Of a stretch of 64,000 nucleotides of DNA, positions 15,149 to 24,372 are shown piece by piece (the first letter of the stretch is position 1; each line of letters begins with the position of its first letter). Below the pieces are notes generated by a model, which saw only the letters and a list, made by a program, of their open reading frames with translations, had not been told where the DNA came from and did no database searches. This DNA comes from Eledone cirrhosa (Eukaryota), in contig OZ024746.1 in assembly GCA_964016885.1 (NCBI GenBank), forward strand, positions 47,864,001 through 47,928,000, read 5' to 3'. The position numbers were made by a program, and so were the translations under genes.

Positions 15149-15367
15149 CAATGATATTAAATAAATGGAAACTATATTTATAAAACCATATTTATTCTAT
15201 TATATATACAAGGGTACCAAGATTTTGGTACGCTATCATCAGATAAAATACGAAGTGTGTTTAATATCATTGAATATTATACGCCAGAAAATCTATCGAG
15301 TGCTCTGAATCAGTTATAAACATTTAGATTTGTTGAATTACCAACAAATTGAATATCCCTTCGGCTT
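15149..15367. mobile_element. Miniature version of the Penelope insertion: inverted pseudo-LTR stub with a broken hammerhead, joined to the 3' tail
   Basis: 15149-15252 resembles 18852-18960; 15261-15367 resembles 22760-22858 (tcgagtgct..atcagttataaa). Flanked by microsatellites. Confidence 0.75.
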
Positions 15368-15381
15368 ATATATATATATAT

Positions 15382-15558
15382 AAGACTAAAATCCAAAGAA
15401 GGCTCGATAAGGATATATATATTTATTAAAATAACAGATTAAAGTTTCCTGCTTTCACCCTTAACTTTAATCTGTTATTTTAATAAATATTTGCTTTAGG
15501 GTTCTTATATATTTGATATATATTTATCCTTATCGAGCCCTCTTTGGATTTTAGTCTT
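15382..15558. repeat. Nested inverted-repeat insert between TA tracts
   Basis: Outer arms aagactaaaatccaaaga.ggctcgataaggata; inner arms atatttattaaaataacagattaaagtt. Shares cagattaaagttt..gctttcaccct with 4713-4770. Confidence 0.85.
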
Positions 15559-15829
15559 CAAATTTATTATTATTACTATATATATATATATATATATATA
15601 TATATATATATATATATATATATATTTAGGTTTGGTTGTTCAAACGGGAGAAACAGTACTCAATGTACACAGATAGAGCTACACTTGGAACTCAAGTGTC
15701 AGGATTTTCATGCATTAAACACGACACTACTGGTCCTCGAGCCATCACTATGGTTTTGAGGCTATAATGAATTACATACACAATCACTCACACAAACATA
15801 CATGTACTTTGAGAGTACGTGCGATGGTC

Positions 15830-16148
15830 GTATATATATATATATATGTATATATATATGTATATATGTATATATATATATATATATATATATATATATA
15901 TATATATATATATATATATATATATATATATATATATGTATATATATATATATATATATATATATATATATATATATATATATATATATATATATATATA
16001 TGTATATATATATATATATATATATATATATATATATATATATATATATATATATATATGTGTATATATATATATACATATATATATATATATATATATA
16101 TATATATATATATATATATATATATATATATATATATATATATATATG
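15830..16148. repeat. (TA)n microsatellite
   Basis: Direct reading. Similar tracts at 12073-12280, 18047-18850, 22859-23372 and 29488-29935. Confidence 0.97.
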
Positions 16149-16323
16149 TACGTTATTCCGGGTTGAATTGGAGGTAACCACAGTAAGTAAGGTACTCAAT
16201 ACATAGCAGAGTATAAAAGTTTTAATATATATATATATAAAAGGTAAACAGAAATAACAACACAATCGGTACAGTACATGGAAGGGATATATTAGGTTAA
16301 CGTTTGATATAGCAGGAAGAGGG

Positions 16324-19530: not shown

Positions 19531-21234
19531 ATGCCTAGGAAACCCAAGATCAATATGAAAGATCACAAAAGAAATTTTGAAAATGATTTGCCAGTCAGAT
19601 TGATTGCACCATCAAAATCTGACCTGGGAAGACTTAGCAAAAACATTCTAGACAGGGTTATACAGCAAATTAAAAACTTACATAATTTACCTTACTTAAA
19701 GTTATGGAAGGGGACTGGTGAGGTTATTGAGTGGTTTAAAGAAATTAAATATAACTATAATAATAAGTTTATTCAACTTGAAATTGGTAACTACTATTCA
19801 TCTATCACTCCTAATCTATTGAATAAGGCACTAAATTACGCATTTAAACATACTGACCTAACTAGCAATGAAATGCACATTATATTATCGGCAAGGAAAA
19901 CATTGATAGAATTTAATAACCAACTATGGACTAGGGCAGATAGAGATAATAATTTCGACATAACTATGGGATCATCTGACTCAGCTCAGGTAACGGACCT
20001 TGTGGACCTATTTATAATTAATTCGCTACATAGAAAAATACCATGTGTAACCGGAGGATTATATCGTGATGACATGCTTTTACTTATTGAAAATAATAGA
20101 TGTGAACTAAATAGAAAAAGAAAACAAATTATACAATTTTTTAATTACCTTAATCTAAAAATAGAAATAGAGAATAACCATAGAATAGTCAATTTTCTGG
20201 ATGTAACACTAAATCTCAACACATGTCTTCACTATCCATTTCACAAACTAAATGAGAACTTGAATTACGACAATTTTAACTCTAATCACCCCAGATCTGT
20301 TAAAAATACTATAGTGAACTCTGTTCAAGAACGAATTTCAAGAATTTAATCTAATAAAAATATTTTTGATGAAAAAGCGCAGTATTACAATGAAGCGTTA
20401 GCTAGAGCAGGATATAGAGATAAAATTAAGTACATCGATAATAATAAGCAAACTAACCAAAATAATAACAATTTTAATTACGGTAACAACATTAACAACT
20501 ATAATAGAAAACATTACAATAATTCCAAAAGCCGAAAAAGAAATAGAACTAGAAATATATTATGGTTTGCCCCCACCCCTTTTTCACTAAATATTAAAAC
20601 CCATATTGCTAAACTATTCTTTAATGCTCTTGACAAACGCTTCCCTAGAACACATAAATATCACTCAATTTTTAATAGACACACTATAAAATTAACTTAC
20701 TCGTCCACCAAAAATTTAGCACAAAATATTAACAGAATTAATAATAGGAATTTAAAACCTAACCAAAATACCAATAATAACCCAAACAATATTCAATTAA
20801 ATAACTGTAACTGTAGAAATAAATCTAACTGTCCGTTAAATAACAACTGCTTAGCTAAAAATGTAGTGTACAATTGTAATGTTAAAACTAATTTAAATTC
20901 TTTCAACTATGTTGGTTCCACCTCGACAGAATTTAAACTTCGCTTCAATAATCATAAGAATTCTTTCACAGATCCAAACAAAAAATCCTCAACTTCGCTA
21001 TCAAGCCTACTCTGGCACCTTAAACGAGATAATGTTAAATATTCGATGTTTTGGAATATTGTCTCAAAAGGGATTCCTTTTAATTCCTCATCAGAGACTT
21101 GCGATCTTTGTGTAGAGGAAATATTCTTTATATTAAAGTCCAAAAATTCCCTTAATTTAAGGAGCAATTTATTCAGTTGCTGCAGACATAGATTAAACTC
21201 AACGTTTAAATATAAATATAAATTTAAAATGTAG
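19531..21234 (+). pseudogene. Penelope-like RT / Cys-knuckle / GIY-YIG endonuclease ORF with one premature stop (TAA 20347-20349), N-terminus missing
   Basis: KDHK..F, RLIAPSKS, MGSSDSAQVTDLV, GGLYRDD, VNFLDVTL. The same frame continues past the stop: RNILWFAPTPFS, CNCRNKSNCPLNNNC, VVYNC..YVGST..FKLRFNNH, CDLC, CCRH. Confidence 0.93.
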
Positions 21235-22656
21235 TATAATTAATTAAGAAATTTAGTTAATATATGAAACCTGACGATAAATCATTTGATTCCTTCACCT
21301 TTTTCTTTTTAAACTTTCTTCCTAAATATAAACAAGGATATAATAAACTACTCTAAAATGTATATGCTCTCAATGTATTAAATAAAATTTACGTAAGATA
21401 AATTTCTATATTAAATATAAGGGCATCCGTAGAATCACTGGGTCTTCTAAATCTTTTAAATAATTTTTGTTTTTTATTTGTTTTTTTACTCTGATAGCTT
21501 CTAATAACTTTTATATGTCTACCCTTGCAATATCTTGTTTGAGATATAGGTAGGATAGATTTCTATAAATATATGAAGCATATTGTTTTTGCTTGAGATA
21601 CTCTATAGTGTGTTAAAGATTTTTTAATGCTTTGATATTTCTGTATTAATATATTGATATTTGATTATCTCTATACAAAGGCCATTTGTGTGTATTAACA
21701 TGCATATAATGGGTTTATTGAGTTTATTTATGTGTTCGTATATATGTCTGTATATGTGCATAACGATGCTGGAAAACTCACGCAGATATTTATTTATACA
21801 TATATATATGTATATCTATGGTTCTGTGTGTATATGTTGATGTGTGGTGCAGATGTGCATAATATTAAATACATGAACGGTAATCATATATGTGAGGACA
21901 TGAATATTAATCGTGTGTTTTATGTATATATACTGTGAAATTTTTATAACACAAGAAATGTATAGAAGTGATCAGGTGAAATCATTTGTATGTCTATATT
22001 ATTGACTAGAGTAGACATAAATTTCTCTCTTTTTTTTTTACATATGCGTGTATATATATATACATATATGTATCCGTATTTTTATAAATAGGGTAATTTT
22101 TGAAGGTTTTAACTCAGATTTTGGTATATTGACCTCAGAGTTTTTAAACTAAACATATGGTCATTATTGAACAATGTTATTTTCTCATAATATATATCGA
22201 TGTCTCATTCATGAATATTGATATTTGCATTTTTATTATTCATTTCATATGAATTGTTAATTCAACTTAATATGACATGACGTAAAGTTGTCACTGTATC
22301 CTCTTCTCTCTATATAGTACTTCCTCTCTCTTGAGTTTCTCTATCTGTATGATGAATTATTATCTCTCTGTTGCTTTCTTTTGCCTTTCTTATTTCTTTC
22401 TTTTTTCTTTTTCATTTCCTCCTATCTATTTATATATATCTTCCTTTTTTCTCTCTCTCCTTCTTTTTTCTCTCTCTCCTTCTCTCTCTCCGTTTTTTCT
22501 TTCTCTCCGTTTTTTTCTTTCTCTCCGTCTTTTTTCTAACTGTGCTTAACACTATAACTAATAAAATAATTATAAACATCTCACTATCCAGACAGCCTCC
22601 AAAAATAATGGTCGCTTCTAATAGGGTACGTCAAAATTATTTATAAAACTGTTTAT

Positions 22657-22732
22657 ATATTGTATTTTATCTGACGAAGGCATGCCATATTTTAATTTGG
22701 TATCCCTGAAATATGTATAATGAAATAAATAT
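22657..22732 (+). ncRNA. Type I hammerhead ribozyme in the Penelope pseudo-LTR
   Basis: Stem I atatt(g)tattttat/atgaaataaatat; CTGACGA; stem II agg-c-atgcca/tggtat-c-cct; GAAA; stem III ATA-tg-TAT; predicted cleavage after A22719. Confidence 0.85.
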
Positions 22733-23465
22733 GGTTTTATAAATATAGTTTCTATTTATTTAATATCGTACATCTACTCCAAAAACTTGTCGAGTGCTTT
22801 ATATCAGTTATAAAATATTTACTTGTTGTATCCCAACAATTTTAAATAAAACTTTTGCATATATATATATATATATATATATATATATATATATATATAT
22901 ATATATATATATATATACATACATACATATCCATACATACATACACATACATATACATACATATCACAAACACATACATACAGATACAAACACACATATG
23001 TATCCGTGTAAAACTCATTCTTAGATATATTCATATGAACCTTGTTTAACTCTAATATATATATATATATAAACACATATATACATATACATATATATAT
23101 ATATACCTACACACACATATACATACACATACGTATGCATACATACATACACACACACCCACACATATAATTATATTATATATATATATATATTTGTGTG
23201 TGTGCGTGTGCATGTATGTATATGTGTGTGCATGTATGTATGTGTGTGTGCATGTGTGTGTGTGTATATATATATATATATATATATGTGTGTGTGTGTG
23301 TGTGTGTGTGTGTGTGTGTGTGTGTGTGTGTGTGTGTGTGTGTGTGTGTGTGTGTGTGTGTGTGTGTGTGTGCATTTATATCAGAGTCCGGTGGTATTAG
23401 ATGTCGAAACGGCAAGAGCACAGCCGTTGGGCCTCGACCCTTTCTAATATATATATATATAGATA

Positions 23466-24372
23466 TACGATATTAATAAATGGAAATTATATTTATAAAA
23501 CCATATTTATTTCATTATACATATTTCAGGGATAGCAAATTAAATCATGGTATGCCTTCATCAGACAAAATACAATATATAACAGTTTTACAAATAAGCT
23601 TTGACGTACCCTTTTAAAATGCAACCATTATTTTTGGAAGCCATCTGGATAGTGAATTGTTTATATTATTTTAATAAGTTAAGGACAATTAGAAAAAGAC
23701 GGAGAGAAAGAAAAAAACGGAGCGAGAGAAAAAAGAAAAAGAAAAAAACGTGGAGAAATATCGGAGAGAGAGAAATGCATGGAGAAAAAAAGAGAGAGAT
23801 AGATAAAGACAGGAGGAAAGAAAGAAAAAAGAAAAAAGGAAGAAATAAGAAAAACAGAGGAAAGCAACAGAGAGATATCAAATCATCAGACAGATAGAAA
23901 AACTCAAGAGAGAGAAATAATACATAGAGAGAGGGGGAGATAATGAAAACTTTACGTCATGTCATATTAAGTTGAGTTAACAATTTATATGAAATGAATA
24001 ATAAAAATATAAATATTAATATTTCTGAATGGGACATAAATATATAATATGAGAAATTAAACATTGTTTAATAATGATTATATGTTTAGTTTAAAACTTG
24101 AGATCAATACACTAAAATTTGAGAAACCATTATCTTACGGCAAAGATAGACAAATATATATATATATATATATATATATATATATATATACTCAGGTCTA
24201 CAATATAGACATACAAAACGCAAATGATTTCTCTTAATCGCTGCTATACATTCCTTGTGTTATAAAAAGTTCACAGTATATATACATAAATATATACGAT
24301 TAACATTCATGCCTTCATATATACGATTACCATTCATGCATTTAACATTTTGTTAAAAATTATGCATATCTG
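23466..24372 (-). mobile_element. Diverged 3' end / pseudo-LTR copy of the same Penelope family, with a hammerhead at about 23503-23578
   Basis: Colinear with 18852-19487, and further with the reverse complement of about 21850-22135. Core CTGATGA..GAAA intact. Confidence 0.88.

Follow-up and report, generated by a model that had tools for sequence, protein, structure and literature searches.

A type I hammerhead fold with a conserved C-C mismatch in the pseudo-LTRs of a Hydra-clade Penelope-like element of Eledone cirrhosa

A 64,000-nt stretch of the Eledone cirrhosa genome (GenBank assembly GCA_964016885.1, contig OZ024746.1, positions 47,864,001 to 47,928,000 of the forward strand; hereafter the window) contains five copies of a motif that can be drawn as a hammerhead ribozyme. 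Does this locus hold an active ribozyme under selection, as an initial annotation made from the sequence alone had proposed, and what is the motif doing there? Judged from sequence, it is a type I hammerhead fold located in the pseudo-long terminal repeat (pLTR) of a Hydra-clade Penelope-like element (PLE), a retrotransposon. We consider it probable that selection on the source elements of this family keeps the fold, that cutting is likely weak and takes place mainly in the dimer, and that uncut RNA is likely the template of most new copies. The five copies in the window are themselves probably inert products.

All five motifs, along with the stem II arms quoted for them in the initial annotation, were located in the window sequence. 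The strands are mixed: two CUGANGA boxes are on plus, starting at 17714 and 22671, and the other three are on minus, starting at 15242, 18951 and 23564. However, only four copies, representing four subfamilies, are independent, because the motifs annotated at 18890 and 22657 sit in the inverted arms of one insertion (18846-19487 and 22135-22776; 8 differences in 642 nt, or 99% identity). Subfamily A comprises an intact-core motif at 22653-22737 (plus; CUGACGA at 22671, C-C at 22681/22704, GAAA at 22708, predicted cut after 22719 at AUA) and its inverted partner at 18885-18969 (minus). The subfamily B motif at 17696-17780 (plus) is also intact, with a predicted cut after 17762, and belongs to an insertion that is short and tailless and has its 5′ fold-back near 17610-17636. 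Subfamily C is represented at 23498-23582 (minus), within a separate insertion at about 23454-24352 that is approximately 80% identical to the main element. Finally, a short insertion carries the subfamily D motif at 15183-15260 (minus) in its inverted arm, and its tail continues on the plus strand to about 15368; this motif has lost GAAA and is predicted to be dead.

The core elements CUGANGA, GAAA and UH occur in type I order and are intact in four of the five copies. Other details of the annotated fold held as well, namely the C-C mismatch in stem II, a stem I of 13 bp with one bulge, the stem III palindrome ATATGTAT, and the predicted cut after 22719. The loss of GAAA in the 15190 copy and the extra stem II mismatch in the 23503 copy are likewise real, but both are private damage, since their subfamily siblings are intact: common types of the former group keep GAAA, and common sibling types of the latter have a paired upper stem. 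Each of the four independent copies has a set of close relatives of its own elsewhere in the genome; with 40 candidates scored per search, the best matches were 97-100% identical for three independent copies and 87-97% identical for the 15242 copy. A model derived from this hammerhead family, whose training set included the 22671 and 17714 copies, returned exactly these five motifs in the window at 63-95 bits, with the next match at 19 bits. Separately, an unrelated minimal hammerhead can be drawn by eye at 16310-16360 (minus), with CUGAUGA, a 4-5 bp stem II, GAAAC-GUU and a 4-bp stem I; this drawing differs from the minimum-energy fold there.

The evidence for selection comes from the wider family. 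We imposed the hammerhead structure on 24 variants, hand-picked to span the families from 278 motif copies in 240 loci, and found that 93.2% of 380 cells were paired, as compared to 35-49% for slid controls. Two-sided change was seen in 13 of the 16 pairs, including five of five in stem I and eight of nine in stem II, and stem I covaries right up to the cut site. Helix III offers no covariation because it is invariant across these variants. None of 500 shuffles of the alignment equalled the observed score, a figure that is not a probability because the 24 rows are related. RNAalifold recovered stem II unprompted, and the C-C mismatch was kept in 23 of the 24 variants while the pairs on either side of it vary. 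CUGANGA, GAAA and UA are also retained by every majority type among the copies that were recovered only through sequence similarity.

A second pairing test drew on 315 motif copies. For the 15 types represented by at least three copies, 147 of 150 positions were paired, and 205 of the 243 differences between these types preserve pairing, 73 of them two-sided. In contrast, among 55 rare types (at most two changes from a common type) 19 of the 24 stem changes disrupt pairing, and two-sided changes are absent. Changes between lineages thus mostly keep pairing whereas rare single-copy ones mostly break it, and therefore the fold is selected in spreading elements and decays after insertion. The covariation proposed in the initial annotation is indeed real for stems I and II in the larger alignment, although it lies between subfamily source elements and not among the five window copies. 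Together, the 24-variant covariation and the pairing-preserving differences between types bear out the claim of selection on the fold, and selection acting on the source elements is well supported.

The motif is also extremely abundant. A pattern combining the core and stem III gave 82,633 exact matches in the 3.0-Gb genome and only 184 for a reversed control, so chance does not account for it; adding C at stem II position 4 of both arms left 73,034 matches (88%; control, 5). These figures count motifs and not insertions, because many insertions carry two arms. Contigs of four sequencing runs (kind unrecorded; two from other organisms) cover the motif and include the same kinds of variants. 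For comparison, approximately 9,000 minimal hammerheads have been published for Xenopus (PMC4209133), about one-ninth of the copy number found here, and 126,247 retrozyme hammerheads for axolotl (PMC7229834).

In the main element, the inverted, tailless pLTR arm (18846-19487, minus) is followed by an open reading frame (ORF) at 19488-21234 (plus) encoding a reverse transcriptase (RT) with C-terminal GIY-YIG of the Hydra-clade type. This ORF is truncated at its 5′ end, with about 163 N-terminal residues missing, and carries a private in-frame stop at 20347-20349. Downstream are a long 3′ untranslated part (21235-22582, plus), a predicted upstream hairpin (22583-22631, plus; ACUAUCC with GGGUA-GU) at whose 5′ arm the 5′ ends of genomic copies cluster, the subfamily A hammerhead, and a tail (22770-22858, plus) that lies between two preferred 3′ ends and is followed by (TA)n. 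Indeed, genomic copies stop at two sites, about 51-54 and 139 nt past the predicted cut, both adjoining (TA)n. The ORF contains CNCRNKSNC (the CxCx5C linker), CDLC (CxxC) and CRH (CxH), as described for the Hydra clade around conserved E and N, and a YVG-type endonuclease region at its C terminus; the N-terminal motifs RWR and SDKT were supplied by a sibling locus (L172). Compared by eye, the ORF matched the published Hydra alignment (PMC8557442), and Pfam and PDB searches of it gave nothing informative. The annotation of a PLE with a type I hammerhead was therefore borne out by the fold, the Hydra-type ORF and the (TA)n insertion.

A sense hammerhead precedes the start codon by 187-189 nt in six of the 14 loci that retain this codon, a count from which two more rows without a tail (224 and 233 nt upstream) were left out. 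Summing the lengths of the parts gives a cut-to-cut unit of about 3.9 kb. Two other identities were rejected: a non-LTR retrozyme, because the window has no short tandem non-coding repeat array and the motif is attached to an RT ORF, and Hydra-1_Obim, from which both protein and hammerhead differ. A CUCC...GAG hairpin motif is present in similar form once in the tail (22770-22810) and once in the ORF leader (locus L156), and both preferred 3′ ends fall in a short TA run just before such a motif; this hairpin may be the signal that starts reverse transcription. The window also holds a second Hydra-type element at 4820-7600 (minus), which is decayed, has an RT approximately 45-50% identical, and retains only a degenerate CUGAAGA near 5000.

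Is past cutting visible in the genomic copies? A 20-nt anchor just past the cut gave 47,509 matches, 4,038 of them without G12 in place, and therefore 91.5% of anchored copies extend across the cut site. In a sample made up of the first 100 of those 4,038 copies, 50 run on as mutated hammerheads, and the other 50 join foreign sequence (four rows adjoining (TA) runs or the palindrome are ambiguous). Since most copies span the cut, their templates would mostly have been uncut or rejoined RNA. This would be in line with a lizard PLE, where protein assists the cutting and the main substrate is RNA left uncut (PMC11167929). The 5′ ends instead cluster 75-92 nt (about 86) upstream of the core in subfamilies A-E, in a tally biased for A-C by queries that required about 71-78 nt upstream. 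With an unbiased anchor just downstream of this spot, 18 of 30 subfamily B loci (L241-L270) end within 9 nt, and the same kind of anchor gave 47 of 100 ends within about 14 nt by eye, inverted partners being counted separately; the comparison level around the cut is about 0.17% per nt. The hairpin at this spot shows weak covariation (one of seven pairs). A transcription start or cDNA fold-back would each explain the clustering, and Drosophila Penelope is known to have an internal promoter (PMC2377424). An intron reading of a GGTATGT motif was considered and dropped, as it needs RNA reads.

The folding energies bear on how such a hammerhead might cut. In the 22671 copy the active monomer has a computed energy of -8.0 kcal/mol, 4.0 worse than the best fold, and closing stem III costs 2.9 kcal/mol relative to leaving it open. 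A strand-swapped dimer, in which stem III extends to 8 bp across the strands, is computed at -27.6 kcal/mol versus -24.0 for two best monomers. These values lend support to the dimer-compatible stem III of the initial annotation, and cleavage as a dimer, as proposed for PLE hammerheads (PMC4209133), is favoured over cleavage as a monomer, though not proven. The annotation had also proposed a check against Hammerhead_1 of Rfam, and this check failed: no hammerhead family matched 22560-22800 at E values up to 10, none being among the three matches there, and none occurs among the best 150 of 279 Rfam matches in the window. The fold is left unrefuted by this result.

In the mechanism that we propose, an upstream partial copy would drive a transcript carrying two hammerheads about 3.9 kb apart, which would pair via AUAURUAU and swap stem I, perhaps aided by the element's protein. 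Cutting of this dimer would free an RNA one unit long, bearing a new 5′ end. Reverse transcription would begin about 51 or 139 nt past the cut and would thus have to cross it, so that slow cutting would be compatible with copying and may be needed. Of three roles for the C-C mismatch, the most likely, at about an even chance, is that it tunes the cutting rate as a stem II hinge or contact; a mark recognized by protein is a more tentative proposal, and inheritance without function seems less likely again. Within this locus there is no sense tandem hammerhead pair in one element, the second copy of the full element being antisense. The window copies are therefore unlikely to be the active ones, because the main element has one sense motif, with which the inverted arm would pair in a read-through RNA. 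A bolder proposal, possible but in our judgement doubtful, is that the fixed C-C, long stem II and (AU)4 stem III define an undescribed hammerhead subtype that would be off during templating and turned on via the dimer or the element's protein, and that would, along with the upstream hairpin, split the RNA into template and cut pools.

Several observations weigh against the main reading of a selected fold with weak, mainly dimeric cutting. There is no excess of 5′ ends at the cut, as 10 of the 50 foreign junctions fall within -3 to +3 and 12 would be expected from an even spread over 25 positions, in a sample too small to reveal a small excess. Single-strand folding z-scores are weak (-0.46 for the 22671 copy and -2.0 for the 17714 copy), and the best two-strand fold (-30.4 kcal/mol) is not the hammerhead dimer. 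The aligned variants are related and were chosen by hand, RNAalifold did not predict stems I and III from them, and the core was demanded by the search pattern for many of them, such that its invariance in the alignment is partly built in. Furthermore, the stem II pair nearest the core is usually A-U, G-U or U-U in place of the usual G-C (A-U 12, G-U 7, G-C 2 and other 3 in the alignment).

Three other explanations were considered. The hammerhead of the same element might cut efficiently as a monomer, if the internal loop formed by C-C contacted stem I in place of the usual loop 2 and thereby offset the weak stem III. The persistence of C-C while both neighbouring pairs change would suit this idea, as would its position, roughly where loop 2 falls in canonical type I motifs with a 4-bp helix II (PMC4209133), and a stem III of 2 bp plus a tetraloop is possible by analogy with axolotl HHR_Amex2, of which 22% was cut in one hour as a monomer (PMC7229834). 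We nonetheless judge it unlikely, given the cost of closing stem III in the monomer, the conservation of the 8-nt palindrome, and the number of copies that span the cut site, which is hard to fit with fast cutting unless the ends rejoin. Alternatively, the fold could persist because it signals binding or folding to the element's RT-endonuclease, with no useful cutting left. The lack of a 5′-end excess among the foreign junctions and the non-canonical pair at the base of stem II are consistent with this, and catalytic mutants left insertion in vitro unimpaired in the lizard PLE (PMC11167929). Yet the majority types found by similarity all keep the catalytic sequences, and stem I covariation reaches exactly to the cut site, which makes a signal without useful cutting improbable. 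Least credible, and largely refuted by the 24-variant alignment, is the idea that the pairing arose at the DNA level, as a by-product when these elements make fold-back inversions: fold-backs and perfect palindromes are indeed common in these insertions, but fold-backs yield perfect inverted copies at varying places, whereas distant families share three helices that include G-U pairs and a constant mismatch and that surround a fixed catalytic core.

The preferred reading, a selected fold that likely cuts weakly and mainly as a dimer, can also be compared to known systems. The Hydra-clade PLEs of Craig et al. 2021 (PMC8557442) share C-terminal GIY-YIG, RW(K/R), DKT, the CxCx5C linker, CxxC and CxH, along with (TA)n insertion, an inverted 5′ arm, a tail and a type I hammerhead near the 3′ end, although they are mostly under 3 kb as compared to a unit of about 3.9 kb here. 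Hammerheads are reported to be universal in Hydra elements, with their function stated to be unclear (PMC8557442). In 25 published Hydra hammerhead rows examined by eye (PMC8557442), stems II are uninterrupted at 3-7 bp and stem III is AC...GU, whereas in the present family C-C interrupts a stem II of 9-10 bp, stem III is AUAURUAU and the cut site is AUA; C-C, the AUAURUAU palindrome, the AUA site and the long stem II occur in none of those 25 rows. The metazoan PLE minimal hammerheads of Cervera and de la Pena 2014 (PMC4209133) share the pLTR location, a large helix II, a palindromic helix III (15.2-16.2) region, families rich in compensatory changes, a dimer model and low expected activity. 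They differ in having a helix I of 4-5 bp (up to 13 bp here), in leaving a base unpaired ahead of stem II and in conserving G10.1-C11.1; the basal pair here is variable, and the combination of G10.1-C11.1 with an extra base before stem II was not found.

Anolis Poseidon (Frangieh et al. 2024, PMC11167929) similarly has two reverse-transcription starts downstream of the hammerhead that define a tail, AT-rich targets and uncut RNA as its main template. However, its ORF starts inside the hammerhead, whereas here 189 nt separate the cut from the start codon, and its tail, at 30-40 bp, is shorter than the tail of about 85 nt seen here. Type I hammerheads, very high copy number and dimer cleavage of the kind proposed here are also features of metazoan non-LTR retrozymes (PMC7229834; bioRxiv 10.64898/2026.07.22.740005), but these are short tandem non-coding repeats, unlike the dispersed ends of a coding element found here. 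Hammerheads in Hydra-clade pLTRs are thus already known; what appears to be new, on these comparisons, is the variant with the fixed C-C, AUAURUAU stem III and long stem II. A literature search at the level of titles and abstracts found no paper on this family or on a C-C hammerhead variant, but such variants may already have been covered by Lunse et al. 2017, whose subject is dimeric PLE hammerheads.

Other features of the window are as follows. Fold-back repeats sharing GTCGAAACGG lie at 2663-3071, 16805-16944 and 23386-23445, and an 8-kb degenerate (AT)n block spans 36500-44572. A sodium/calcium exchanger exon was identified at 61003-61425 (minus; PF01699, E 7e-15), and the repeats may lie downstream of this exchanger gene. 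At 62557-63153 (plus) there is a 198-aa frame without a Pfam match, which we take to resemble a non-LTR retrotransposon fragment.

The finding leaves the kind of element unchanged. It does reveal a gap in Rfam, which misses a class of hammerhead whose core has over 80,000 matches in a single genome. Because its fold is under strong selection, its mismatch persists among families with otherwise different stems, and the genomic evidence points to mostly uncut templates, this hammerhead offers a clean test case. If the more doubtful proposal of a subtype switched between template and cut pools were true, tens of thousands of natural variants would make the role of PLE hammerheads directly testable.

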